Below are positions 2,359 to 61,170 of a DNA stretch of 64,000 nucleotides, piece by piece. The DNA comes from Escherichia coli (lineage in GTDB: Bacteria > Pseudomonadota > Gammaproteobacteria > Enterobacterales > Enterobacteriaceae): NCBI RefSeq assembly GCF_003991155.1, contig NZ_CP031293.1; one strand, given 5' to 3'. Both the position numbers and the translations under genes were made by a program. The notes beneath the pieces were generated by a model, which saw only the letters and a list, made by a program, of their open reading frames with translations, had not been told where the DNA came from and made no database searches. How positions within the stretch are numbered: position 1 is the stretch's first letter; each line of letters opens with the position of its first letter.

Positions 2359-3093
2359 ATGTCCAAACTCGATCTAAACGCCCTGAACGAACTGCCGAAG
2401 GTAGATCGCATTCTGGCGCTGGCGGAAACTAACGCCGAACTGGAAAAACTGGACGCTGAAGGCCGCGTTGCCTGGGCGCTGGATAATCTGCCTGGTGAAT
2501 ATGTACTTTCTTCCAGCTTTGGCATTCAGGCGGCGGTGAGCCTGCATCTGGTGAATCAGATTCGCCCGGATATTCCAGTGATCCTCACCGATACGGGTTA
2601 CTTGTTCCCGGAAACCTACCGCTTTATTGACGAGTTAACGGACAAACTCAAACTCAACCTGAAAGTGTACCGCGCTACCGAAAGCGCCGCCTGGCAGGAA
2701 GCACGTTACGGAAAACTATGGGAGCAGGGCGTTGAAGGCATTGAAAAGTACAATGACATCAACAAAGTCGAACCGATGAACCGGGCGCTGAAAGAACTAA
2801 ACGCGCAAACGTGGTTTGCTGGCCTGCGCCGTGAACAATCCGGCAGCCGCGCCAATTTACCGGTGCTGGCAATTCAGCGTGGCGTATTTAAAGTGCTGCC
2901 GATTATCGACTGGAATAACCGAACGATATATCAGTACCTGCAAAAACATGGCCTGAAATATCACCCATTATGGGACGAAGGATATTTATCGGTCGGTGAT
3001 ACCCATACAACCCGTAAATGGGAACCCGGCATGGCGGAAGAAGAAACGCGTTTCTTTGGCTTGAAAAGGGAATGTGGATTACACGAAGGGTAA
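2359..3093 (+). CDS. cysH: phosphoadenosine phosphosulfate (PAPS) reductase
   Basis: 244-aa ORF starting [14 protein letters not shown]; longer ORF-track start at 2206 rejected in favour of ATG at 2359, which matches the recalled CysH N-terminus and lies just downstream of the REP element. Confidence 0.93.
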
Positions 3094-3112
3094 ATATTGC
3101 TGCTTAAATTAA

Positions 3113-3149
3113 ACGCCTCTGTCTGAAAAGATGGGGGCGTTTTTATTTT
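3113..3149 (+). terminator. putative Rho-independent terminator after cysH
   Basis: GC-rich imperfect hairpin (acgcctc...gggggcgt) followed by TTTTTATTTT. Confidence 0.45.
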
Positions 3150-3357
3150 GCGAGCAGGATTCCTGATTTTAAACGTGAACGCCGCAGGAAGAATCAACAG
3201 GCATAGAATGGCGTTGGGTGCTTGAGGCTGTCTGGCGTTAAGCATTCGCGAGGTTCCAGATGGACAAAAGCCCCAGGCGATATTTCTATCAACCTGAGGC
3301 CAGCGTTCGAACCTAAGCAATTCGGATGTTAGTCTCTTCTTTGCAGGGAGGCAAGAC

Positions 3358-3510
3358 ATGCTGACAAAATATGCCCTTGTGGCAATCATCGTACTGTGTT
3401 GTACAGTACTGGGATTCACGTTGATGGTAGGCGACTCGTTGTGTGAGTTGAGTATCAGAGAACGTGGTATGGAGTTTAAGGCAGTTCTCGCTTACGAATC
3501 GAAGAAGTAG
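3358..3510 (+). CDS. Hok/Gef-family type I toxin (50 aa, small membrane peptide)
   Basis: ORF below the 60-aa track cutoff, translated by hand: [50 protein letters not shown]; hydrophobic N-terminal helix plus SLCE and AYES motifs shared with Hok/Gef/RelF; GGGAGG Shine-Dalgarno 7 nt upstream. Confidence 0.8.
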
Positions 3511-3515
3511 CCACC

Positions 3516-3575
3516 ACGCGGGGTAAAACCCCGCGTACTGAATTGTGATTGTTTGGCCTCCTGCACCCCTTTTTT
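3516..3575 (+). terminator. hok 3' structure: perfect 9-bp stem-loop, fold-back element complementary to transcript 5' region, then T-tract
   Basis: ACGCGGGGU/ACCCCGCGU stem at 3516-3536; GCCUCCUGCACCC (3557-3569) can pair 11/13 with GGGUGCUUGAGGC at 3216-3228; TTTTTT at 3570-3575. Confidence 0.55.
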
Positions 3576-3635
3576 ATACTCTGTTTCTGGTGGCATTGAT
3601 TTCCTGCAGGCAAGGGAGTAATCATTTCAAACCCA

Positions 3636-4673
3636 TTAAGATGCCTTCGCCAGCTCCTTCACCAACGGTAGCATTATCCGCATAACATCACGGCAGCGAC
3701 GTTCTATTCTTCCTGGAAGTGCCTTATCAATATGCTGTTGATTATCCAGTCTTACGTCATGCCAGCTATTTCCTGCAGGGAATGCGGCTGTTTTTGCGCG
3801 TTGCTGATAACCATCCTTATTCCCAAGATTCCAGTTTGTCGCTTCCACCGAAAGTACAGCAATGCCCGCTTTGTCGAATATTTCTGCGTCATTACAACAC
3901 CCAGTGCCTTTCGGATAGTTTTTATTCAAACCTGGATTTGTGGTGGCGGCAATTCCATGACTGCGGGCAATTGCCAGCGCCCGGTCGCGCGTTAATTTCC
4001 TTACTGCTTCAGGTGTTTTTACGCCACTGTTGAAATACAGCTTATCGCCAACAATCAGATTATCGAGATTAATCACCAATAAAGTATTTTTCTTTTCGGT
4101 ATCACTCATGCGCTTGAGTAAATTCTCAGCGCCTAATTTCCCTTCTTCTTCACCACTGGTTGCCACAAAACGAATGCCATATTCGGTTGGCGTATTTTTC
4201 AGGCGTTCAGCCAGCTCCAGCATGACACCTAAACCTGCGGCGTTATCATCCATTCCTTGTAACGTCAGCCCGCCGAGATTGGCATCGGCGTCAGCATCGC
4301 TCAGCGGGGCGTAAGTATCCAGATGCGCCATAATGATGATCTGCTGCGGCGCTTTGCCTTCATGAGCGGCAATCACCGTACTTCCCGTCACGTTATGCCA
4401 GCTCTTGCGATTATCGCGGGCGGTATAAATATACCGACTATTAAATGTCCGAATATCACTGCGATAACCCATTTGCTGAAACTGTTGGCGAATATAATCG
4501 GCAGATAACATTTCTGCAGGAGTTCCGGTCATGCGTCCCGGAAAGAAAGTAGCAATATGTCGTGCCTGGGTATTAGCAAAATCGCCAGGTTTAGGTGACG
4601 AGGCGTGTACGGGGAGAATAAAGCATACGCCGAGCGCCAGGGCAGCGGTACGGTGGCGCAATGCGGAAAACAT
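3636..4673 (-). CDS. iap: alkaline phosphatase isozyme conversion aminopeptidase
   Basis: 345-aa ORF with signal peptide and M28-type peptidase features; convergent with hok. Confidence 0.9.
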   Translation of the reverse strand: MFSALRHRTAALALGVCFILPVHASSPKPGDFANTQARHIATFFPGRMTGTPAEMLSADYIRQQFQQMGYRSDIRTFNSRYIYTARDNRKSWHNVTGSTVIAAHEGKAPQQIIIMAHLDTYAPLSDADADANLGGLTLQGMDDNAAGLGVMLELAERLKNTPTEYGIRFVATSGEEEGKLGAENLLKRMSDTEKKNTLLVINLDNLIVGDKLYFNSGVKTPEAVRKLTRDRALAIARSHGIAATTNPGLNKNYPKGTGCCNDAEIFDKAGIAVLSVEATNWNLGNKDGYQQRAKTAAFPAGNSWHDVRLDNQQHIDKALPGRIERRCRDVMRIMLPLVKELAKAS

Positions 4674-12500: not shown

Positions 12501-13640
12501 ATGAGCGCGGGAAGCCCAAAATTCACCGTTCGCCGCATTGCGGCTTTGTCACTGGTTTCGCTATGGCTGGCAGGCTGTTCTGACACTTCAAATCCACCGG
12601 CCCCGGTCAGCTCCGTTAATGGCAATGCGCCTGCAAATACCAATTCTGGTATGTTGATTACGCCGCCGCCGAAAATGGGGACGACGTCTACAGCTCAGCA
12701 ACCGCAAATTCAGCCGGTACAGCAGCCACAAATTCAGGCCACTCAACAACCGCAAATCCAGCCGGTGCAGCCAGTAGCTCAGCAGCCGGTACAGATGGAA
12801 AACGGACGCATCGTCTATAACCGTCAGTATGGGAACATTCCGAAAGGCAGTTATAGCGGCAGTACCTATACAGTGAAAAAAGGCGACACACTTTTCTATA
12901 TCGCCTGGATTACTGGCAACGATTTCCGTGACCTTGCTCAGCGCAACAATATTCAGGCACCATACGCGCTGAACGTCGGTCAGACCTTACAGGTGGGGAA
13001 TGCTTCCGGTACGCCAATCACTGGCGGAAATGCCATTACCCAGGCCGACGCAGCAGAGCAAGGAGTTGTGATCAAGCCTGCACAAAATTCCACCGTTGCT
13101 GTTGCTTCGCAACCGACAATTACGTATTCTGAGTCTTCGGGTGAACAGAGTGCTAACAAAATGTTGCCGAACAACAAGCCAACTGCGACCACGGTCACAG
13201 CGCCTGTAACGGTACCAACAGCAAGCACAACCGAGCCGACTGTCAGCAGTACATCAACCAGTACGCCTATCTCCACCTGGCGCTGGCCGACTGAGGGCAA
13301 AGTGATCGAAACCTTTGGCGCTTCTGAGGGGGGCAACAAGGGGATTGATATCGCAGGCAGCAAAGGACAGGCAATTATCGCGACTGCAGATGGACGCGTT
13401 GTTTATGCCGGTAACGCGCTGCGCGGCTACGGTAATCTGATTATCATCAAACATAATGATGATTACCTGAGTGCCTACGCCCATAACGACACAATGCTGG
13501 TCCGGGAACAACAAGAAGTGAAGGCGGGGCAAAAAATAGCAACCATGGGTAGCACCGGAACCAGTTCAACACGCTTGCATTTTGAAATTCGTTACAAGGG
13601 GAAATCCGTAAACCCGCTGCGTTATTTGCCGCAGCGATAA
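12501..13640 (+). CDS. nlpD: murein hydrolase activator lipoprotein NlpD (LysM + M23 peptidase-like)
   Basis: 379-aa ORF; lipobox LAGC; Q/P-rich repeat region; C-terminal M23 domain. Confidence 0.93.
12706..12777 (+). repeat. three in-frame tandem 24-bp repeats inside nlpD encoding (QQPQIQPx)3
   Basis: cagcaaccgcaaattcagccggta / cagcagccacaaattcaggccact / caacaaccgcaaatccagccggtg. Confidence 0.8.
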
Positions 13641-13702
13641 ATCGGCGGAACCAGGCTTTTGCTTGAATGTTCCGTCAAGGGATCACGGGTAGGAGCCACC
13701 TT

Positions 13703-14695
13703 ATGAGTCAGAATACGCTGAAAGTTCATGATTTAAATGAAGATGCGGAATTTGATGAGAACGGAGTTGAGGTTTTTGACGAAAAGGCCTTAGTAGAAGA
13801 GGAACCCAGTGATAACGATTTGGCCGAAGAGGAACTGTTATCGCAGGGAGCCACACAGCGTGTGCTGGACGCGACTCAGCTTTACCTTGGTGAGATTGGT
13901 TATTCACCACTGTTAACGGCCGAAGAAGAAGTTTATTTTGCGCGTCGCGCACTGCGTGGAGATGTTGCCTCTCGCCGCCGGATGATCGAGAGTAACTTGC
14001 GTCTGGTGGTAAAAATTGCCCGCCGTTATGGCAATCGTGGTCTGGCGTTGCTGGATCTTATCGAAGAGGGCAACCTGGGGCTGATCCGCGCGGTAGAGAA
14101 GTTTGACCCGGAACGTGGTTTCCGCTTCTCAACATACGCAACCTGGTGGATTCGCCAGACGATCGAACGGGCGATTATGAACCAAACCCGTACTATTCGT
14201 TTGCCGATTCACATCGTAAAGGAGCTGAACGTTTACCTGCGAACCGCACGTGAGTTGTCCCATAAGCTGGACCACGAACCAAGTGCGGAAGAGATCGCAG
14301 AGCAACTGGATAAGCCAGTTGATGACGTCAGCCGTATGCTTCGTCTTAACGAGCGCATTACCTCGGTAGACACCCCGCTGGGTGGTGATTCCGAAAAAGC
14401 GTTGCTGGACATCCTGGCCGATGAAAAAGAGAATGGTCCGGAAGATACCACGCAAGATGACGATATGAAGCAGAGCATCGTCAAATGGCTGTTCGAGCTG
14501 AACGCCAAACAGCGTGAAGTACTGGCACGTCGATTCGGTTTGCTGGGGTACGAAGCGGCAACACTGGAAGATGTAGGTCGTGAAATTGGCCTCACCCGTG
14601 AACGTGTTCGCCAGATTCAGGTTGAAGGCCTGCGCCGTTTGCGCGAAATCCTGCAAACGCAGGGGCTGAATATCGAAGCGCTGTTCCGCGAGTAA
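13703..14695 (+). CDS. rpoS: RNA polymerase sigma factor RpoS (sigma-38)
   Basis: 330-aa ORF from [11 protein letters not shown]; ORF-track start at 13667 rejected; codon 33 is GAG (Glu). Confidence 0.95.
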
Positions 14696-14815: not shown

Positions 14816-15224
14816 CTATTTGCTCATCATCTTGCGCACCAGCTGCATAAACAGCTCCTGCTCTTCTGCACTCAAACGCCCCAAAAATTCCTCATCCACA
14901 CTGTCACCAATCGGTATCGCCGCAGCAAGTACCTTTTCTCCTTCGGCAGTCAGCCAGACAAAGCGTCGCCGCTTATCAGCAGAGTCATGTTCTCGTCTGA
15001 CTAAGCCACGATTTTCCATTCGTGCCAACATTTCTGCCAGCGTTGCTTTGGTGCTGACGGCTGCTTCTATCAGTGCCACCTGTTCGATACCAGGTTTATC
15101 AGCAATGGCGCGCATCACCGCGTACTGTGGTTTGGTCAGATCAGGTAACTCGTGCTGCCAGCGAGCCGTGTGCTGCTGAAAAAGCTGTCGTAACTGATGG
15201 AACGCTTTATTTCGTAACGCCATG
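14816..15224 (-). CDS. MarR/SlyA-family transcriptional regulator
   Basis: Winged-helix MarR-like sequence; ATG at 15224 has a GGAG Shine-Dalgarno, the longer 15256 start does not; divergent from the decarboxylase operon. Confidence 0.75.
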
Positions 15225-15369
15225 TAAACTCCGGGCAAACTATCTGCCGCTATCATAGCGGTTTTTCAGTGACGCAGGGGATGTTGTTACTTTTCAGTGC
15301 TTGCCGCGATGAGAACAGAGGCGTATTTTAATAATAACGTTCGTGTACGAACAATTAAGAGAATTAACA

Positions 15370-15963
15370 ATGAGACTGATCGTCGGGATGACAGGGGCCA
15401 CCGGAGCGCCTCTTGGTGTGGCATTACTGCAAGCGCTGCGGGAGATGCCGAATGTCGAGACTCATCTGGTGATGTCGAAGTGGGCGAAAACCACCATTGA
15501 ACTGGAAACGCCTTACAACGCCCGCGATGTTGCTGCCCTCGCAGACTTCTGCCATAACCCGGCGGATCAGGCCGCAACCATCTCCTCAGGTTCCTTTCGT
15601 ACCGACGGCATGATCGTTATTCCGTGCAGTATGAAAACGCTCGCCGGTATCCGTGCCGGTTACGCCGATGGCCTGGTGGGGCGCGCGGCGGACGTCGTGC
15701 TCAAAGAAGGCCGCAAACTGGTGCTGGTGCCGCGTGAAATGCCGCTTAGCACAATCCATCTCGAAAATATGCTCGCACTTTCGCGCATGGGCGTGGCGAT
15801 GGTGCCGCCGATGCCTGCCTTTTATAACCATCCCGAAACGGTAGATGACATTGTCCACCACGTGGTAGCCCGCGTGCTGGATCAATTTGGCCTCGAACAT
15901 CCTCACGCCAGGCGCTGGCAAGGATTGCCGCAGGCCCGGAATTTTTCTCAGGAGAATGAATAA
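15370..15963 (+). CDS. UbiX-family flavin prenyltransferase (decarboxylase subunit B-like)
   Basis: 197-aa ORF starting MRLIVGMTGATGA, typical UbiX/Pad1 N-terminus; first of three tightly linked genes. Confidence 0.8.
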   Translation: MRLIVGMTGATGAPLGVALLQALREMPNVETHLVMSKWAKTTIELETPYNARDVAALADFCHNPADQAATISSGSFRTDGMIVIPCSMKTLAGIRAGYADGLVGRAADVVLKEGRKLVLVPREMPLSTIHLENMLALSRMGVAMVPPMPAFYNHPETVDDIVHHVVARVLDQFGLEHPHARRWQGLPQARNFSQENE

Positions 15964-17390
15964 TGGCATTTGATGATTTACGCAGCTTTTTACAGGCGCT
16001 CGACGACCATGGGCAATTGCTGAAAATCAGCGAAGAGGTGAACGCGGAACCGGATCTGGCAGCAGCAGCTAACGCCACCGGGCGTATCGGCGACGGCGCG
16101 CCCGCGCTGTGGTTTGATAATATTCGCGGCTTTACCGATGCCCGCGTGGCAATGAACACCATCGGTTCCTGGCAGAACCACGCGATTTCCCTCGGCCTGC
16201 CGCCAAATACCCCGGTTAAAAAACAGATTGATGAGTTTATCCGCCGCTGGGATAACTTCCCGATTGCCCCGGAGCGCCGCGCCAATCCGGCCTGGGCGCA
16301 GAACACCGTTGATGGCGACGAGATCAACCTGTTCGATATCCTGCCGCTGTTTCGTTTAAACGATGGCGATGGCGGTTTCTATCTCGACAAAGCGTGCGTG
16401 GTTTCCCGCGATCCGCTTGATCCGGATAACTTCGGCAAGCAGAACGTCGGCATCTACCGTATGGAAGTGAAGGGTAAGCGTAAGCTCGGTCTGCAACCGG
16501 TGCCGATGCACGATATCGCCCTGCATCTGCATAAAGCGGAAGAGCGCGGTGAAGATCTGCCGATTGCCATCACCCTGGGTAACGACCCGATCATCACCCT
16601 GATGGGGGCCACGCCGCTGAAATACGATCAGTCCGAGTACGAAATGGCGGGCGCGCTGCGCGAAAGTCCGTACCCGATCGCCACCGCTCCGCTGACCGGT
16701 TTTGATGTGCCGTGGGGCTCGGAGGTGATCCTCGAAGGAGTCATCGAAAGCCGCAAACGCGAGATTGAAGGGCCATTCGGTGAGTTTACCGGCCACTACT
16801 CCGGCGGGCGCAATATGACCGTCGTGCGCATTGATAAAGTCTCTTATCGCAGCAAACCCATTTTTGAATCGCTCTATCTCGGGATGCCGTGGACGGAAAT
16901 CGACTACCTGATGGGGCCAGCCACCTGTGTGCCGCTGTATCAACAACTGAAAGCTGAGTTCCCGGAAGTGCAGGCGGTAAACGCCATGTACACCCACGGC
17001 CTGCTGGCGATTATCTCCACCAAAAAACGCTACGGTGGCTTTGCCCGCGCGGTGGGCCTCCGTGCGATGACCACGCCGCACGGTCTGGGCTACGTGAAGA
17101 TGGTGATTATGGTCGATGAAGACGTTGATCCGTTCAACCTGCCGCAGGTGATGTGGGCGCTCTCTTCGAAAGTGAACCCGGCAGGGGATTTGGTGCAGTT
17201 GCCGAATATGTCCGTGCTGGAACTCGACCCTGGCTCAAGTCCGGCGGGGATCACCGACAAGCTGATTATCGACGCCACCACGCCTGTCGCCCCGGACAAC
17301 CGTGGTCACTACAGTCAGCCGGTGGTGGATTTACCGGAAACCAAAGCCTGGGCTGAAAAACTGACCGCTATGCTGGCCGCACGTCAATAA
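15963..17390 (+). CDS. UbiD-family non-oxidative aromatic acid decarboxylase (subunit C-like)
   Basis: 475-aa ORF; start overlaps upstream stop; UbiD-like length and sequence. Confidence 0.8.
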   Translation: MAFDDLRSFLQALDDHGQLLKISEEVNAEPDLAAAANATGRIGDGAPALWFDNIRGFTDARVAMNTIGSWQNHAISLGLPPNTPVKKQIDEFIRRWDNFPIAPERRANPAWAQNTVDGDEINLFDILPLFRLNDGDGGFYLDKACVVSRDPLDPDNFGKQNVGIYRMEVKGKRKLGLQPVPMHDIALHLHKAEERGEDLPIAITLGNDPIITLMGATPLKYDQSEYEMAGALRESPYPIATAPLTGFDVPWGSEVILEGVIESRKREIEGPFGEFTGHYSGGRNMTVVRIDKVSYRSKPIFESLYLGMPWTEIDYLMGPATCVPLYQQLKAEFPEVQAVNAMYTHGLLAIISTKKRYGGFARAVGLRAMTTPHGLGYVKMVIMVDEDVDPFNLPQVMWALSSKVNPAGDLVQLPNMSVLELDPGSSPAGITDKLIIDATTPVAPDNRGHYSQPVVDLPETKAWAEKLTAMLAARQ

Positions 17391-17400
17391 GGAGAACAAG

Positions 17401-17637
17401 ATGATTTGTCCACGTTGTGCCGATGAACAGATTGAAGTGATGGCGAAATCGCCGGTAAAAGATGTCTGGACGGTATATCAGTGCCAGCATTGCCTTTATA
17501 CCTGGCGCGATACCGAACCGCTGCGCCGCACCAGCCGCGAACATTATCCCGAAGCGTTCCGCATGACGCAGAAAGATATTGATGACGCGCCGATGGTGCC
17601 GAGCATCCCGCCGCTGCTGGCGGAAGGTAAGTGTTAA
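17401..17637 (+). CDS. small decarboxylase subunit D-like protein with CxxC...CxxC motif
   Basis: 78-aa ORF MICPRCADEQ...CQHCLYTW, 10 bp downstream of the UbiD-like gene. Confidence 0.65.
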   Translation: MICPRCADEQIEVMAKSPVKDVWTVYQCQHCLYTWRDTEPLRRTSREHYPEAFRMTQKDIDDAPMVPSIPPLLAEGKC

Positions 17638-17646
17638 TAAAAAAGT

Positions 17647-17674
17647 GCCGGGTAGAGGCTTTGCTTTACCCGGC
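17647..17674. terminator. hairpin between convergent decarboxylase operon and pphB
   Basis: gccgggta...tacccggc 8-bp stem. Confidence 0.4.
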
Positions 17675-17678
17675 CACG

Positions 17679-18335
17679 TTATTTAATTTTATAAAACGAT
17701 AACCGTCTGCTTTCCGGCGAGCCGGTATCAATATAAACCTGATTGGCAAATGTCTGGATATTTATAAACATCATATGTCCAAAGATAAAACAGTCGGCAC
17801 CGTTTATTTCTTTTAACTCTCCCTTGAATGATTTCTGCACGCGATCAACAGGCCAGAGTAATTCGCTTTCTGCTATTTCTTTACCAAACTGATATTCATC
17901 ACCCGGATAATCTGCATGTGCGATGACATATTTTATGTTGTCGTTAGTGATTTCAATAATATGTGGAAGGTGATGGAATTTCAGCAACAGATCTATTGCC
18001 TCTTGTTGCTCTGAATCATTTAAATTGAAAAACCAGTCACCACCGCTGGCAAGCCACATATTTCCATCGCCAGTTTCGAATGCCTCAAGCGCCATCGCTT
18101 CGTGGTTGCCTTTAGCCGATGTAAACCAGGGCTGGTTTAGCAGGCGCAGCACGTTAAGACTCTCCGGCCCACGATCAATATTATCGCCGACAGAAATAAG
18201 TAAGTCGGTTTCAGGGCAAAAAGAGAGTTGATGTAAGCGGGATTGTAATAATTGATAGTCACCATGAATATCACCAACGGCCCATATATGGCGATAGTGA
18301 TGGGCATTGATTTTTTGATAGCGTGTAGATGGCAT
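17679..18335 (-). CDS. pphB: serine/threonine protein phosphatase 2
   Basis: 218-aa ORF with metallophosphatase motifs GDIHGD, GDNIDRG, GNHE. Confidence 0.9.
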   Translation of the reverse strand: MPSTRYQKINAHHYRHIWAVGDIHGDYQLLQSRLHQLSFCPETDLLISVGDNIDRGPESLNVLRLLNQPWFTSAKGNHEAMALEAFETGDGNMWLASGGDWFFNLNDSEQQEAIDLLLKFHHLPHIIEITNDNIKYVIAHADYPGDEYQFGKEIAESELLWPVDRVQKSFKGELKEINGADCFIFGHMMFINIQTFANQVYIDTGSPESRRLSFYKIK

Positions 18336-18440: not shown

Positions 18441-21002
18441 TTACACCAGACTCTTCAAGCGATAAATCCACTCCAGCGCCTGACGCGGAGTCAGTGAATC
18501 CGGGTCGAGGTTTTCCAGTGCCTCGACCGCAGGCGAAGTTTCTTCCGGTAGGGACAGCAAAGACATTTGTGTACCATCCACTTGCGTAGCAGCGGCGTTC
18601 GGCGAAATGCTTTCCAGCTCACGCAGTTTTTGCCGTGCGCGCTTAATAACCTCTTTTGGCACGCCCGCCAGAGCAGCAACCGCCAGGCCGTAGCTTTTGC
18701 TCGCCGCGCCATCCTGCACGCTGTGCATAAAGGCAATGGTGTCGCCGTGCTCCAGCGCATCGAGATGCACGTTGGCGACGCCTTCCATTTTCTCCGGCAG
18801 TTGGGTCAGCTCGAAATAGTGGGTAGCAAACAGCGTCAACGCTTTGATCTTATTTGCCAGATTTTCCGCGCATGCCCACGCCAGCGACAGACCATCGTAA
18901 GTGGAAGTTCCGCGCCCAATCTCATCCATCAGCACCAGACTGTACTCGGTGGCGTTATGTAAAATATTGGCGGTTTCGGTCATCTCCACCATAAAGGTTG
19001 AACGCCCGGATGCCAGATCGTCTGCCGCGCCTACGCGGGTAAAGATACGGTCGATCGGGCCAATCTCGACTTTTTGCGCCGGTACGTAGCTGCCGATATA
19101 CGCCATCAGCGCAATCAACGCGGTCTGGCGCATATAGGTACTTTTACCGCCCATGTTCGGACCGGTAATGATCAACATGCGGCGCTGCGGCGACAGGTTC
19201 AGCGGGTTAGCGATAAACGGCTCATTCAGTACTTGTTCAACTACCGGATGGCGACCTTCGGTAATGCGAATACCCGGTTTATCAATAAAGGTCGGGCAGG
19301 TGTAGTTCAGGGTATAGGCCCGTTCCGCCAGGTTCACCAGCACGTCGAGTTCCGCCAGCGCGCTCGCGCTCTGTTGCAACGCTTCCAGATGCGGCAACAG
19401 CAGGTCGAACAGCTCTTCATAAAGTTGTTTTTCCAGAGCCAGTGCTTTGCCTTTTGAGGTGAGAACTTTATCTTCGTACTCTTTCAGCTCCGGAATAATG
19501 TAACGCTCGGCGTTTTTCAGCGTCTGGCGGCGCATGTAGTTAATCGGTGCCAGATGGCTTTGCCCACGGCTGATCTGAATGTAGTAGCCGTGCACTGCAT
19601 TAAAGCCAACTTTCAGCGTGTCCAGGCCGGTACGTTCACGCTCGCGGACCTCCAGACGCTCCAGATAATCGGTCGCACCGTCAGCCAGCGCGCGCCACTC
19701 ATCCAGCTCTTCGTTATAGCCCGATGCGATAACACCACCGTCGCGTACCAGCACCGGTGGTGTGTCGATGATTGCTCGCTCCAGCAGATCGCGCAGCTCG
19801 GCAAACTCGCCCATCTTCTCACGCAGCGCTTGTACCGGTGCACTATCGACATTTTCTAACTGCGCACGCAACTCCGGCAGTTGCTGGAAAGCGTGGCGCA
19901 TACGGGCCAGATCGCGCGGGCGAGCAGTACGTAACGCCAGACGCGCCAGAATACGTTCCAGGTCGCCCACCTGACGCAGCACAGGCTGTATCTCGGCGGT
20001 GAAATCCTGCAATGCGCCAATAGTTTGCTGGCGCTCAAGCAACACGCGGGTATCGCGCACTGGCATATGCAGCCAGCGTTTCAGCATACGACTACCCATC
20101 GGCGTTACAGTGCAGTCGAGCACTGAAGCCAGCGTGTTTTCCGCACCGCCCGCCAGGTTCTGAGTAATTTCCAGGTTACGACGCGTCGCGGCATCCATAA
20201 TGATGCTGTCCTGCTCACGTTCCATGGTGATAGAACGAATATGCGGCAGGGTCGTGCGTTGGGTATCTTTCGCATACTGCAACAGACAACCGGCAGCACA
20301 AAGTCCGCGCGGCGCGTTCTCGACGCCAAAACCGACCAGATCGCGGGTGCCAAATTGCAGATTCAACTGCTGGCGCGCAGTGTCGATTTCAAACTCCCAC
20401 AGCGGACGACGACGCAGGCCGCGACGACCTTCAATCAGCGACATCTCGGCGAAATCTTCTGCATACAACAGCTCTGCCGGGTTGGTACGTTGCAGCTCTG
20501 CAGCCATCGTTTCGCGGTCCGCCGGTTCGCTAAGGCGAAAACGCCCGGAGCTGATATCCAACGTCGCGTAGCCGAACCCTTTGCTGTCCTGCCAGATAGC
20601 TGCCAGCAGGTTATCCTGACGCTCCTGCAACAGCGCTTCATCGCTGATGGTGCCCGGCGTAACGATACGGACAACTTTGCGCTCGACCGGCCCTTTGCTG
20701 GTCGCCGGATCGCCAATTTGTTCGCAGATGGCAACGGACTCGCCCTGATTCACCAGTTTGGCGAGATAGTTTTCCACCGCATGGTAGGGGATCCCCGCCA
20801 TCGGGATCGGCTCTCCCGCGGAAGCACCGCGTTTGGTCAGTGAAATATCCAGCAGCTGCGAGGCGCGTTTCGCGTCGTCATAAAACAGTTCGTAAAAGTC
20901 ACCCATCCGATAGAACAGCAGGATCTCGGGATGCTGGGCTTTCAGCTTGAGATACTGCTGCATCATTGGCGTATGGGCATCAAAATTTTCTATTGCACTC
21001 AT
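18441..21002 (-). CDS. mutS: DNA mismatch repair protein MutS
   Basis: 853-aa ORF; Walker [10 protein letters not shown]; recognised MutS sequence. Confidence 0.97.
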
Positions 21003-36009: not shown

Positions 36010-36783
36010 TTGAACATCAAAACAGGGATGTGCGCTTTTTTATTGAGCTTAGTGCTGCCTGCACAGGCCACCAGCTTTACCGAATATCTGCCAATGAGTG
36101 ACAGCGAATACGCGCAAAAGCGGGCGCTGAAACCTCTCCTGACTATGCCTTATTATACCGAGCAAACCTGGCATTTTAGAAAAGTGGGCGTTGCTGGCGT
36201 GACGCTTGAGAAGATGCCAAATGATGATAGTGAATGGCAATTGAACGGTAAAGATCGCGCCGGTAAATCCTGGTCTGTGCCTGTGGGGGTGCTGCAAAAT
36301 ATGGCGGGTAATGCGCAACTTTACCGTGCCGATCTTGATCGTAACGGCATTCAGGATCTGGTTATCTGGCGGGGTATTTCAGGAAATGGTCTGGCACCTA
36401 ACGCGTTTTTGATTCTGATGACCTTTAATCAGCAAGGTCGCCCGTGTGTTTTTCAGTCCGATAGTTTTTATACCGCAAGTGAAACTGGCATTGATGATTT
36501 GCTGGATTTACAAAGGAATGGCCACACGCAATTGCTGGATATGCAGTTTGATTCCGGTTACTGGATAACCAGTCTGTATCAGGTAAAAGACGCCAAATGG
36601 CAGCGTGTTCACGGCTGGTTTGGCAAGTTAAGCTATCCCGCGCTCACGCGTTTTACTTATACCCCCAACCGTAAACTCGTCCTCAAACCCATCGCCGGGC
36701 GCGACCCGCAATCGGAAGATCTGGCGCTGACGCAGCGTTGCTTGATAAAGGGGGATGTTCTTGATGGGGTGAACCAGCTCTGA
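36010..36783 (+). CDS. hypothetical exported protein (predicted signal peptide, cleavage near AQA-TS)
   Basis: 257-aa ORF 24 bp after hycI, same strand; TTG start gives MNIKTGMCAFLLSLVLPAQA (ATG at 36028 is an alternative); no recognised family. Confidence 0.55.
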   Translation: MNIKTGMCAFLLSLVLPAQATSFTEYLPMSDSEYAQKRALKPLLTMPYYTEQTWHFRKVGVAGVTLEKMPNDDSEWQLNGKDRAGKSWSVPVGVLQNMAGNAQLYRADLDRNGIQDLVIWRGISGNGLAPNAFLILMTFNQQGRPCVFQSDSFYTASETGIDDLLDLQRNGHTQLLDMQFDSGYWITSLYQVKDAKWQRVHGWFGKLSYPALTRFTYTPNRKLVLKPIAGRDPQSEDLALTQRCLIKGDVLDGVNQL

Positions 36784-60578: not shown

Positions 60579-60671
60579 GGTGAGGTGGCCGAGAGGCTGA
60601 AGGCGCTCCCCTGCTAAGGGAGTATGCGGTCAAAAGCTGCATCCGGGGTTCGAATCCCCGCCTCACCGCCA
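60579..60671 (+). tRNA. serV: tRNA-Ser (anticodon GCU)
   Basis: 93-nt cloverleaf with long variable arm; GGTGAGG...CCTCACCGCCA; anticodon loop CTGCTAA. Confidence 0.93.
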
Positions 60672-60674
60672 TTT

Positions 60675-60751
60675 GCATCCGTAGCTCAGCTGGATAGAGT
60701 ACTCGGCTACGAACCGAGCGGTCGGAGGTTCGAATCCTCCCGGATGCACCA
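60675..60751 (+). tRNA. argV: tRNA-Arg (anticodon ACG), copy 1
   Basis: 77-nt GCATCCGTAGCTCAGCTGGATAGAG...CGGATGCACCA; anticodon loop CTACGAA; copy-to-gene-name assignment is tentative. Confidence 0.93.
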
Positions 60752-60815
60752 TCTCTTACTTGATACGGCTTTAGTGGCGGTATCAAAAAATCTGCAGTAA
60801 AGTAAGTTTCCCGAT

Positions 60816-60892
60816 GCATCCGTAGCTCAGCTGGATAGAGTACTCGGCTACGAACCGAGCGGTCGGAGGTTCGAATCCTCCCGGATGCACCA
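60816..60892 (+). tRNA. argY: tRNA-Arg (anticodon ACG), copy 2
   Basis: Identical 77-nt sequence; name assignment tentative. Confidence 0.93.
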
Positions 60893-60954
60893 TCTCTTAC
60901 TTGATATGGCTTTAGTAGCGGTATCAATATCAGCAGTAAAATAAATTTCCCGAT

Positions 60955-61031
60955 GCATCCGTAGCTCAGCTGGATAGAGTACTCGGCTACGAACCGAGCG
61001 GTCGGAGGTTCGAATCCTCCCGGATGCACCA
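60955..61031 (+). tRNA. argZ: tRNA-Arg (anticodon ACG), copy 3
   Basis: Identical 77-nt sequence; name assignment tentative. Confidence 0.93.
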
Positions 61032-61093
61032 TCTCTTACTTGATATGGCTTTAGTAGCGGTATCAATATCAGCAGTAAAATAAATTTCCCGAT

Positions 61094-61170
61094 GCATCCG
61101 TAGCTCAGCTGGATAGAGTACTCGGCTACGAACCGAGCGGTCGGAGGTTCGAATCCTCCCGGATGCACCA
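61094..61170 (+). tRNA. argQ: tRNA-Arg (anticodon ACG), copy 4
   Basis: Identical 77-nt sequence; name assignment tentative. Confidence 0.93.

Follow-up and report, generated by a model that had tools for sequence, protein, structure and literature searches.

Known hok/sok systems and the cysH-iap region

The hok/sok (parB) system of plasmid R1 is the paradigm type I toxin-antitoxin system. Hok/Gef toxins carry a cysteine at position 46 that is either coded in the DNA or made by RNA editing (PMC12214031), and the second route applies to HokC, HokD and HokE. In expression tests of Hok homologues, 42 of 45 were toxic, HokE included, and the same work summarises that chromosomal hokA, hokB and hokC do not bring about post-segregational killing and that such chromosomal loci were reported not to be activated by rifampicin (bioRxiv 10.1101/2025.08.07.668861). 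One chromosomal locus of this type, hokX/sokX at cysH, is already known, being annotated in RefSeq and named in the literature. Almendros et al. 2014 (PMC3903273) reported hok sok in the CRISPR-I region of all strains but those with cas-E2, and described a cas-less arrangement B that arises by deletion, cas-E1 having been lost beside a resident hok sok. The adherent-invasive strain (AIEC) NRG857c carries an intact hok (“hok-5”), homologous to hokX, in its cysH-iap region (PMC7232551), and hok plus sokX is found beside cysH in 90% of UPEC (PMC12736100). Searchable literature yielded no experiments on hokX itself.

The window analysed here, a 64-kb stretch of Escherichia coli DNA, very probably holds between cysH and iap a complete chromosomal hokX/sokX module, in a variant of the CRISPR-I region from which the cas-E genes, the leader and the CRISPR2.1 array have been deleted (arrangement B). 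This CRISPR-less cysH-hok-iap layout is likewise a described one, and about 21% of the complete E. coli genomes have it. Since hokX/sokX is well conserved and carried at this site by approximately 78% of complete genomes, and the CRISPR-less layout has been published, the observation that gave rise to this analysis is correct but ordinary, and the locus matters little as a discovery. Its practical value is that of a sanity check, in that a type I toxin gene and a missing CRISPR-Cas system were both recognised from raw sequence in the first-pass annotation.

The spacer and its flanking genes

The flanking genes and the only terminator-like site found in positions 3050-3700 are as follows.

2359-3093, plus strand: cysH (PAPS reductase), left flank; NCBIfam TIGR02057 at 346.7 bits and NF002537 at 323 bits, with the same coding sequence annotated in strain 2016C-3878
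3636-4673, minus strand: iap (aminopeptidase), right flank; NCBIfam NF007568 at 705 bits
3111-3151, plus strand: intrinsic terminator of cysH, a 14-pair stem followed by a T-run

As cysH ends at 3093 and iap, on the minus strand, at 3636, the spacer comprises positions 3094-3635, or 542 bp, in agreement with the gap of about 540 bp noted at first reading. The terminator is predicted to insulate hok from read-through out of cysH. Two weak Rfam matches in the region, to ctRNA_p42d (E 0.018) and Spot_42 (E 0.056), both correspond to this terminator hairpin and were set aside.

The spacer had also been described as free of cas genes and CRISPR repeats, and every scan bears this out. No match to the type I-E repeat consensus with three or fewer mismatches occurs in the whole window, a tandem-repeat search found no CRISPR-like array, no Rfam CRISPR-DR family reaches its gathering threshold, and no cas gene is annotated across the stretch of 2016C-3878, a 99.98% identical genome, that matches the window. 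The 29-bp type 2 repeats and cas-E genes that mark a type I-E CRISPR-Cas locus (CRISPR-I/CRISPR2.1) between cysH and iap are thus both absent. A GC-rich hairpin at 3516-3536 has a superficial likeness to a CRISPR repeat stem. It is part of the hok 3′ UTR, and strains with cas genes conserve it as well.

The toxin gene hokX

The elements of the coding region are listed below.

3358-3510, plus strand: hokX toxin coding sequence, 50 aa, with Cys14, Cys15, Cys29 and Tyr46; Pfam PF01848, and RefSeq WP_000956458.1, “Hok/Gef family protein”
3346-3351, plus strand: hok Shine-Dalgarno sequence GGGAGG, read from the sequence and invariant in 12 alleles
3493-3495, plus strand: TAC codon of Tyr46 with G as the next base (UACG), predicted to lie in a loop; context CTCGCTTACGAA, the same as in K-12 hokE
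3326-3364, plus strand: 12-codon upstream reading frame found by three-frame translation, its stop overlapping the hok start (ATGCTGA); ATG and frame are conserved in 12 hokX alleles

The 50-codon reading frame is uninterrupted, with the hydrophobic N-terminus and the SLCE and AYES motifs ascribed to it in the first-pass annotation, and the Shine-Dalgarno sequence lies 6 nt ahead of its ATG. Assignment to the Hok/Gef family, for which a profile search had been suggested, is confirmed by a match to Pfam HOK_GEF (PF01848) that covers the whole model (positions 1-42 of 42, 38.9 bits, E 6.3e-10). The peptide has 318 homologues at E <= 0.001, and PF01848 is present in almost all of the 120 homologues listed. 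It has the features expected of the family (about 50 aa, an N-terminal transmembrane helix, Cys14 and Cys29), with hydrophobic residues from 5 to 24 and both cysteines in place. HokX scores below the curated NCBIfam cut-offs, with 53 bits against 89 for the HokA equivalog model NF007290 and 39.5 against 73 for the Hok subfamily model NF007279. Identity with HokA, its best NCBIfam match, was rejected because the NF007290 score falls short of the cut-off; HokE is 78% identical to HokX.

In the predicted mRNA fold the Tyr46 codon sits in a 9-nt loop, CUUACGAAU. By analogy with the edited members of the family, this codon is a candidate site for A-to-I editing by TadA, which would give Cys46.

The upstream reading frame raises the question of mok, which in the R1 paradigm opens within the Sok target region and, by overlapping hok, couples its translation. 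A canonical mok frame overlapping hok is not conserved in any of the three frames across 12 alleles, and there is no start codon at the position equivalent to that of R1 mok, so that mok of the R1 kind is lacking. A frame opening at ATG 3260, with the Shine-Dalgarno sequence GAGG at 3250, is closed in this allele by TAA at 3314-3316. The 12-codon frame at 3326-3364 is possibly a minimal equivalent of mok. Its role is uncertain and its coupling to hok translation unproven, given that the same ATG is in frame with hok in the paralogue hokE.

Hok mRNA, Sok and regulatory elements

The elements that surround the toxin gene are given below, many of them predicted.

3204-3209, plus strand: putative -10 box of the hok mRNA, TAGAAT, read from the sequence; a +1 is predicted 7 nt further on, at 3216, and the box does not vary among 12 aligned alleles
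3216-3576, plus strand: predicted full-length hok mRNA of about 361 nt, from position 1 of the Rfam sok model at 3216 to the end of shared homology
3216-3227, plus strand: tac-like 5′ element GGGTGCTTGAGG, paired with the 3′ fbi in the minimum free energy (MFE) fold and invariant in 12 alleles
3296-3336, plus strand: Sok-target hairpin in the hok leader, GAGGC...GUCUC, from the Rfam consensus structure and the MFE and centroid folds of the shortened mRNA
3260-3318, minus strand: Sok antisense RNA gene, 59 nt, orthologue of K-12 sokX (b4701), placed by mapping the K-12 annotation through the alignment
3326-3354, minus strand: putative Sok promoter, with -35 TTGCCT (3354 to 3349), a 17-nt spacer and -10 TAACAT (3331 to 3326), and a start at about 3318
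3516-3536, plus strand: GC-rich 3′ UTR hairpin ACGCGGGG-TAAAA-CCCCGCGT, which folds and is intact here; elsewhere an IS186/IS421 insertion hot spot
3555-3575, plus strand: fbi-like element GGCCTCCTGCACCCC and T-run at the end of the conserved module, paired with tac in the MFE structure

The Rfam sok model matches positions 3216-3373 with 110 bits against a gathering score of 59. The match runs along the entire leader in the sense of hok, and so identifies the locus but not the strand of Sok. Upstream of the leader no good -35 element was found, and the -10 box was not reported by the consensus promoter scan; that part of the hok promoter is for this reason inferred. At the other end, homology shared with cas-positive strains stops exactly at 3576, and a scan of 3050-3700 predicts no intrinsic terminator at the 3′ end of the hok mRNA.

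The hok-type 3′ RNA structure pointed out at first reading is recovered by folding. In the MFE structure of 3216-3577 the 5′ end closes on the 3′ end, GGGUGC..GAGG pairing with CCUC..GCACCC (z = -4.1, and none of 100 shuffled sequences folds as well). In both the MFE and the centroid structure, 3216-3221 and 3224-3227 are predicted to pair with 3557-3568, and when the last 40 nt are removed in silico the 5′ end refolds locally. Cas-less strains and cas-E1 strains both keep the fbi-like element, in O157:H7 with a change compatible with G-U pairing, and differences between alleles in the Sok-target hairpin are mostly changes of G-U to A-U.

The predicted Sok RNA folds into a single-stranded 5′ tail, a hairpin and a U-tail (-22.7 kcal/mol, z = -3.6). 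Its putative promoter agrees with the consensus at 8 of 12 positions, which is under the scan threshold, and hence is assigned by inference; no variation is seen in this stretch among 12 alleles, and K-12 still has it, the break in homology falling just beyond, at 3360. Plus-strand sites that the promoter scan did report, at 3361-3389 inside hok and at 3553-3580 over fbi, were treated as chance matches, neither fitting the module. Two hallmarks of the hok/sok paradigm are thus present in silico, namely a cis-antisense gene over the leader and predicted long-range pairing of tac with fbi.

Conservation and distribution in E. coli

A survey of 5426 complete E. coli genomes gave matches to the spacer region in 5425, with at least 80% of the spacer covered at 90-100% identity in 4142. 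The matches number 6107, and all are chromosomal, none being on a plasmid. The hok coding region occurs in 4217 genomes (approximately 78%), so that an intact copy is the norm and not an exception. The 3′ UTR runs uninterrupted through fbi in 3407 genomes and is not contiguous in about 810 of the 4217 that carry hok; in sampled cases of the latter it is split by IS186/IS421, and in four of the loci compared the insertion follows about position 3531, in the 3′ UTR hairpin. Hok adjoins iap directly in 1123 genomes.

Synteny beside cysH was checked, and alleles were aligned, in 12 loci. WP_000956458.1 is annotated at cysH in cas-less and in cas-positive strains, O157:H7 included. These loci hold six alleles of the coding sequence with 10 variable sites, of which nine are synonymous and one causes the replacement C15F; with 34 synonymous and 116 non-synonymous sites in total, dN/dS is roughly 0.03. 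The same Hok peptide is found in distant lineages that differ by 4-6% at the DNA level in this region, and the leader at 3216-3300 has a single variable site among the aligned alleles. The bias towards synonymous change, the near-invariant leader, the tac-fbi fold and the conserved Sok promoter and hairpin suggest that the locus is maintained. The support that purifying selection and complete regulatory elements lend to a “live” locus is indirect.

Outside Escherichia, the closest homologues (Enterobacter, Citrobacter rodentium) lie in unrelated contexts, with no cysH synteny, and beyond E. coli hok was found beside iap only in one contig labelled E. albertii.

CRISPR-Cas rearrangements at the junctions

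The first-pass annotation was right that K-12 has CRISPR-Cas beside cysH, as cas3 and casA adjoin cysH there. It went on to place hok in the window “instead of” CRISPR-Cas, and this does not hold, the same module being present between cysH and cas3 in CRISPR-positive strains. As these type I-E-positive strains encode an identical protein, hok is a resident neighbour and not a replacement of CRISPR-Cas. An alignment with this sequence between cysH and the cas genes of CRISPR-positive strains, and with the reading frame disrupted in the window, had been named as evidence against the original reading. The former was found but not the latter; the frame is undisrupted here, and so only half of that combination applies and the reading is not overturned by it.

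Beyond the module lies one further feature.

3577-3621, no strand assigned: segment of 45 bp at the junction, exclusive to cas-less genomes, a scar left by the CRISPR-Cas deletion

This scar occurs once each in 1127 of the 5426 genomes, at 99% identity or more in 1119. It is absent from the cas-positive locus L002, in which homology resumes at about 3622-3625 beside iap. When the segment was compared by short-word BLAST with cas-positive, K-12 and IS-bearing loci, nothing beyond chance 8-13-mers matched, and there was no similarity to the cas genes or leader of L002; a sensitive search of all complete genomes located the segment at the cas-less junction and nowhere else. The direct hok-iap junction with its near-identical scar is the counterpart of arrangement B, the cas-less layout of Almendros et al. 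2014.

K-12 is homologous to the window (93.9% identity) as far as 3360, a position within the hok start codon, and so keeps the sokX part alone. A hok/sok remnant next to cysH, suggested tentatively at first reading, is accordingly real: it is sokX (b4701), which maps to 3318-3260 of the window on the minus strand. The cas-E1 junction and the single-origin cas-less scar both start one base past fbi and its T-run, at 3576. In the K-12-type (cas-E2) replacement the cut falls exactly on the hok start codon, which leaves the Sok gene and its promoter in place; hok without sok was not seen among sampled genomes. It is conceivable that hokX/sokX constrains the loss or exchange of neighbouring CRISPR-Cas, all the surviving rearrangements seen here respecting the module, but we regard this as distinctly doubtful. 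If it were true, CRISPR-Cas turnover in E. coli would be shaped by a type I toxin-antitoxin system that serves as boundary or anchor.

For specialists in type I toxin-antitoxin systems, the points of interest are the strong purifying selection on the peptide, the lack of a canonical mok, the likely TadA site at Tyr46, a 3′ hairpin recurrently hit by IS186, as in hokE, and CRISPR-Cas breakpoints that spare either the whole module or the antitoxin alone.

Proposed mechanism and alternative explanations

The analysis itself shows which locus this is and its orthology, that each element is intact, the predicted pairing of the two mRNA ends, purifying selection and the frequency in the population. 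The mechanism that we propose is built by homology with the R1 hok/sok paradigm; for the ends of the transcripts, processing at the 3′ end, the action of Sok, coupled translation, RNA editing and toxicity it draws on knowledge of the family. A weak constitutive promoter (-10 at 3204-3209) would give a stable hok mRNA of about 360 nt from 3216. In the full-length mRNA, pairing of tac (3216-3227) with fbi (3555-3569) would keep the molecule closed to ribosomes and to Sok, until slow 3′ trimming takes off fbi and the 5′ end refolds locally. Sok, a short and unstable antisense RNA (3318 to 3260) whose promoter overlaps the hok ribosome-binding region, would then pair with the leader hairpin just upstream of the 12-codon frame, so that translation is blocked and the duplex is targeted for cleavage, as in the Sok-dependent RNase III decay of the paradigm. 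Were Sok to drop, the 50-aa Hok would be made and would insert into the inner membrane via its N-terminal helix, with its C-terminus in the periplasm, and depolarise the membrane. Full toxicity may also need editing of Tyr46 (UACG) to Cys by TadA, which would permit a Cys29-Cys46 disulfide.

That the reading frame and RNA motifs arose by chance in an intergenic spacer has a negligible probability, as the small size of the frame is all that speaks for it, and the Pfam match at 6.3e-10, the 110-bit Rfam match, the 318 homologues and the synonymous bias of the variation rule it out. Scarcely more credible is a mobile hok/sok that inserted at a hotspot and displaced or replaced CRISPR-Cas. Hok does fill here the interval that holds cas3 to cas2 and the CRISPR array in K-12, and hok genes often occur on plasmids and prophages. 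Displacement is nevertheless refuted by the co-occurrence of the module with cas genes, an identical module standing between cysH and cas3 in cas-E1-positive strains with homology from cysH to 3576. In addition, all 6107 matches are chromosomal, it is K-12 that has lost the hok coding sequence, and the published reconstruction (PMC3903273) infers deletion of cas-E1 beside a resident hok sok.

A more serious competitor, which we still hold to be unlikely, is a silent relic that looks conserved. The toxin gene would be intact, but with mok gone, Tyr at residue 46 and a general failure of chromosomal hok loci to kill, the native module would be beyond activation; hitch-hiking, or some function of Sok by itself, would account for its persistence. 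There is indeed no long mok frame, the upstream frame is broken by a stop or frameshift in several alleles, strains of the K-12 type fare well with nothing but sokX, a contiguous 3′ UTR through fbi is lacking from about 810 of the 4217 genomes with hok, and chromosomal hokA, hokB and hokC are summarised as not causing post-segregational killing (bioRxiv 10.1101/2025.08.07.668861). On the other hand, nine of the ten variable coding sites are synonymous, with the same peptide across distant lineages, and the leader, Shine-Dalgarno sequence, Sok promoter and tac/fbi are invariant or compatibly changed, which is unexpected for a neutral relic. Close homologues, HokE among them, are moreover toxic on expression (bioRxiv 10.1101/2025.08.07.668861). 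We favour a complete hokX/sokX module, which the sequence evidence suggests is maintained.

Comparison with known systems

The module resembles R1 hok/sok (parB) in its membrane toxin of the same Pfam family, its cis-antisense RNA against the leader, the predicted pairing of the mRNA 5′ and 3′ ends, and the overlap of the putative Sok promoter with the toxin translation initiation region. It differs from R1 in being chromosomal, and on no plasmid in complete E. coli genomes, in having no 70-codon mok, and in its residue 46, which is Tyr and not Cys. A role in post-segregational killing is not expected of it.

Among the K-12 paralogues compared, the closest is hokE/sokE (b4415/b4835), with 39 of 50 residues identical to HokX. 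The two loci align over tac, the Sok region, the target hairpin, the Shine-Dalgarno sequence, the coding sequence and the 3′ GC hairpin, and hokE shares with hokX the UACG context of Tyr46 and the IS186 target site in the 3′ hairpin. They differ in site, hokE lying beside ybdK, and in that IS186B parts hokE from its fbi in K-12 whereas hokX of the window is unbroken. Read from the upstream ATG, hokE is in frame and hokX is not; in hokX this ATG opens the 12-codon frame, which as a separate reading frame is not conserved in hokE.

Of the module K-12 keeps only the side nearest cysH, as far as the hok ATG (sokX), whereas toxin gene and 3′ UTR are both complete in the window; unlike in E. coli B-type strains, the 3′ hairpin is here not split by IS186/IS421. 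In substance the locus of the window is the hokX/sokX locus of other E. coli, which occupies the same site directly downstream of cysH, at 94-100% DNA identity and with the same protein accession.

The hokX/sokX locus between cysH and iap

The plus strand of the window carries cysJ (partial), cysI and cysH. The features of the spacer that follows, and of its flanks, are listed below; the two promoters are putative.

Features of the cysH-iap interval
2359-3093, plus strand: cysH (PAPS reductase equivalog models, 323-347 bits)
3094-3635: cysH-iap spacer, 542 bp
3111-3151: strong intrinsic terminator of cysH (terminator scan)
3204-3209: putative hok promoter, -10-like TAGAAT, 7 nt before 3216, the start of the Rfam model
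3318 to 3260, minus strand: Sok orthologue, folding as a single-stranded 5' tail, a hairpin and a U-tail (z = -3.6)
3354 to 3349 and 3331 to 3326, minus strand: putative Sok promoter, TTGCCT, 17 nt, TAACAT
3358-3510, plus strand: hok, uninterrupted ORF of 50 codons (translation)
3516-3536: GC-rich hairpin in the 3' UTR, downstream of the hok CDS
3636-4673, minus strand: iap (705 bits)

The first-pass annotation had described cysH and iap as about 540 bp apart, with no CRISPR repeats or cas genes and with an uninterrupted 50-codon Hok/Gef ORF, a GGGAGG Shine-Dalgarno sequence and hok-type RNA structure, all of which is borne out. The Shine-Dalgarno sequence lies 6 nt 5' of the hok ATG, the peptide gives a full-model match to Pfam HOK_GEF (E 6.3e-10), and the Rfam sok model scores 110 bits at 3216-3373 (gathering score 59). 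The type I-E CRISPR repeat occurs nowhere in the whole 64 kb with up to 3 mismatches allowed, no CRISPR-like array was found in the window, and the annotation of E. coli 2016C-3878, 99.98% identical to the window across 61 kb, has no cas genes between cysJ and gshA. The hit to the Rfam family “sok” (RF01794) lies on the hok-sense strand and runs the length of the leader, between mRNA +1 and the start of hok, whereas the curated K-12 SokX and SokE RNAs are antisense and lie inside that span; the match thus marks the locus, or hok leader, and not the Sok strand.

What lies between cysH and iap is a known type I toxin-antitoxin locus, named hokX/sokX in the literature, in a cas-less CRISPR-I arrangement that is likewise known; RefSeq calls the ORF “Hok/Gef family protein”. 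Almendros et al. (2014) count “a hok sok system” among the standard elements of the region between iap and cysH (CRISPR-I), found in all strains but those with K-12-type cas-E2 genes, and derive the cas-less “arrangement B” from it by deletion (PMC3903273). An intact hok homologous to hokX was reported from the cysH-iap intergenic region in an AIEC study (PMC7232551), and in a 2025 UPEC survey 90% of strains had hok together with sokX beside cysH, the others having only sokX (PMC12736100).

Distribution and relation to CRISPR-Cas

Megablast searching of 5426 complete E. coli genomes matched the spacer in 5425, always on the chromosome, with at least 80% of the query covered in 4142. The matches fall into the coverage classes below.

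Coverage of the spacer and genome counts for its segments
Spacer 1-542: cas-less, like the window
Spacer 1-483: hok, then cas3
Spacer 1-438: IS inserted in the 3' UTR
Spacer 1-267: K-12-like
Spacer 1-85: rare larger deletions
3340-3520, hok coding region: 4217/5426 genomes (78%), all at 90% identity or more
3490-3585, 3' UTR unbroken through fbi: 3407/5426
3450-3770 in one piece, direct hok-iap junction: 1123/5426 (21%)
3577-3621, 45-bp junction segment: 1127/5426, one copy each, at least 99% identical in 1119

An intact hok is no exception, since most genomes carry one, and the gene resides alongside CRISPR-Cas rather than replacing it. The identical protein, WP_000956458.1, occupies the same position in the cas-less strains 2016C-3878 and 81009, and lies between cysH and cas3 in the CRISPR-Cas I-E-positive E203449, O157:H7 Z1767, 2014C-3051 and A19. 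Aligning the spacer places hok between cysH and the cas genes of CRISPR-positive strains as well, with the ORF undisrupted in the window. The suggested link to a hok/sok remnant beside K-12 cysH proved correct. Since K-12 homology to the window (93.9%) ends at 3360, within the hok start codon, with cas3 next, and the opposite-strand K-12 small RNA SokX (b4701) maps to 3318 to 3260, the window has the complete form of a locus of which K-12 retains only the antitoxin half.

Homology to cas-positive strains ends at 3576 and, in the cas-positive locus examined, restarts at about 3622-3625 beside iap, leaving the 45-bp segment 3577-3621 without counterpart. Such a pattern is consistent with one ancestral deletion that removed cas-E1 together with the array, as published. 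The breakpoints coincide either with 3576 or with the hok ATG, in the latter case leaving sok in place, and might suggest that the hokX/sokX module constrains where CRISPR-Cas is lost or exchanged; this is unlikely to be more than coincidence. The 45-bp segment was seen only at the cas-less hok-iap junction, with no source detectable in cas-positive loci; it holds a palindromic CCTGCAGG, and its ATTTCCTGCAGG recurs at 3767-3778, within iap.

RNA anatomy and conservation

No convincing -35 element is present upstream of TAGAAT. The mRNA 5' end, GGGTGCTTGAGG (3216-3227, tac), is complementary to GGCCTCCTGCACCC (3555-3568, in fbi), and both the MFE and centroid folds of 3216-3577 are closed by this end pairing (-131 kcal/mol, z = -4.1). 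Without the last 40 nt the 5' end is predicted to refold locally, freeing the leader hairpin 3296-3336. The putative Sok promoter agrees with the consensus at just 8 of 12 positions, and the promoter scan did not report it; it overlaps the hok Shine-Dalgarno sequence and is kept in K-12, where the break lies just beyond. Fbi and its T-run end at 3575, 3' of the GC hairpin.

Among 12 loci from diverse lineages (6 CDS alleles), hok has 10 variable sites, 9 of them synonymous and the other giving C15F, in a CDS that offers about 34 synonymous and 116 non-synonymous sites; by our calculation, which ignores phylogenetic non-independence, the neutral chance of at least 9 in 10 being synonymous is about 1e-5. 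In the same loci a single site varies across the leader 3216-3300, the Shine-Dalgarno sequence, Sok promoter and tac are invariant, and differences in fbi are compatible with pairing. Variation is concentrated where the Sok 5' tail and target loop lie; changes there automatically keep cis-antisense complementarity. These patterns point to hokX/sokX as a selected, probably functional module, which is not proof of killing; we infer its hok/sok function from homology together with selection.

The GC-rich hairpin is a recurrent IS186/IS421 target. In derivatives of E. coli B and in several further strains (comparison loci L004, L013, L014 and L017), insertion within it (after ~3531) separates fbi from hok, and a contiguous 3' UTR through fbi is absent in ~810 of 4217 hok-carrying genomes; that of the window is free of IS interruption.

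Across 3222-3364 the upstream frames differ between alleles, through allele-specific stop codons and indels of 1 or 5 nt. In the window, TAA 3314-3316 ends the ORF that starts at ATG 3260 (Shine-Dalgarno GAGG, 3250-3253); K-12-type alleles leave this frame open, and O157/ST131-type alleles carry a frameshift in it. The 12 hokX alleles have just one constant upstream feature, a 12-codon ORF (3326-3364), the stop of which overlaps the hok ATG (ATGCTGA). In some lineages a leader ORF is fused in frame to Hok as an 81-aa ORF, e.g. an EHEC allele on 424 contigs, and gene callers sometimes give N-terminally extended “Hok” proteins of 62-83 aa from hokX alleles (P0002, P0006).

Other features of the window

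Between rpoS (13667-14695) and mutS (18441-21002), the interval 14816-18335 encodes a MarR-family regulator, hydroxyarylic acid decarboxylase subunits B, C and D, and pphB; this gene set probably differs from that of K-12, in a region known to be polymorphic. At 60579-61170, a tRNA-Ser(GCT) gene precedes four copies of tRNA-Arg(ACG) arrayed in tandem on a 139-141-bp repeat. The 99.98%-identical 2016C-3878 has five, so copy number varies. tRNA-Arg(ACG), the natural substrate of TadA, has four genes in the same window as hokX. The nlpD coding region contains an imperfect tandem repeat (12695-12771, 24-bp period, 3.2 copies), and a gene of ~250 aa lies between ascB and hycI (~36028-36783, minus strand; “hypothetical protein” WP_024179463.1 in the annotation of a near-identical reference genome).

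Comparison with known hok systems

E. coli chromosomes carry a median of 6 hok loci each; 42 of 45 Hok homologues tested were toxic, with no enrichment near defence systems (bioRxiv 10.1101/2025.08.07.668861). The top NCBIfam match of the peptide is the HokA model, under its cut-off. Among the matches listed, homologues 80-92% identical occur in Klebsiella, Enterobacter and Citrobacter, with cysH adjacency not seen in those examined; an E. albertii-labelled contig has the cas-less hok-iap layout. The closest non-Escherichia homologue (92%, among the matches listed) belongs to a tandem hok pair ~330-530 bp apart on Enterobacter-type contigs (L018-L020, 3472-4153), adjoining TehB-like and DJ-1/AraC genes, an example of the hok “islets” of the 2025 preprint (bioRxiv 10.1101/2025.08.07.668861).

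The predicted end pairing and refolding of hokX mRNA follow the same tac/fbi logic as plasmid R1 hok mRNA. hokX lacks a canonical mok: the target hairpin has no start codon where that of R1 would lie. The 12-codon ORF may act as a minimal mok; the equivalent ATG is in frame with hok in hokE but not in hokX. HokE is the closest of the K-12 paralogues compared (39 of 50 residues identical), and K-12 hokE carries IS186B at the equivalent base of its 3' hairpin (comparison locus L009, 1700-1710). Cys46 of HokC, HokD and HokE is reportedly made by TadA A-to-I editing, and the toxicity of HokB is linked to a disulfide between Cys29 and Cys46 (PMC12214031; also bioRxiv 10.1101/2025.08.07.668861). Codon 46 of hokX (3493-3495) is Tyr, TAC with G next, and falls within a loop of 9 nt in the predicted fold (CUUACGAAU); this codon context is identical to that of K-12 hokE, and by analogy it would be a candidate site for the same editing to Cys46.
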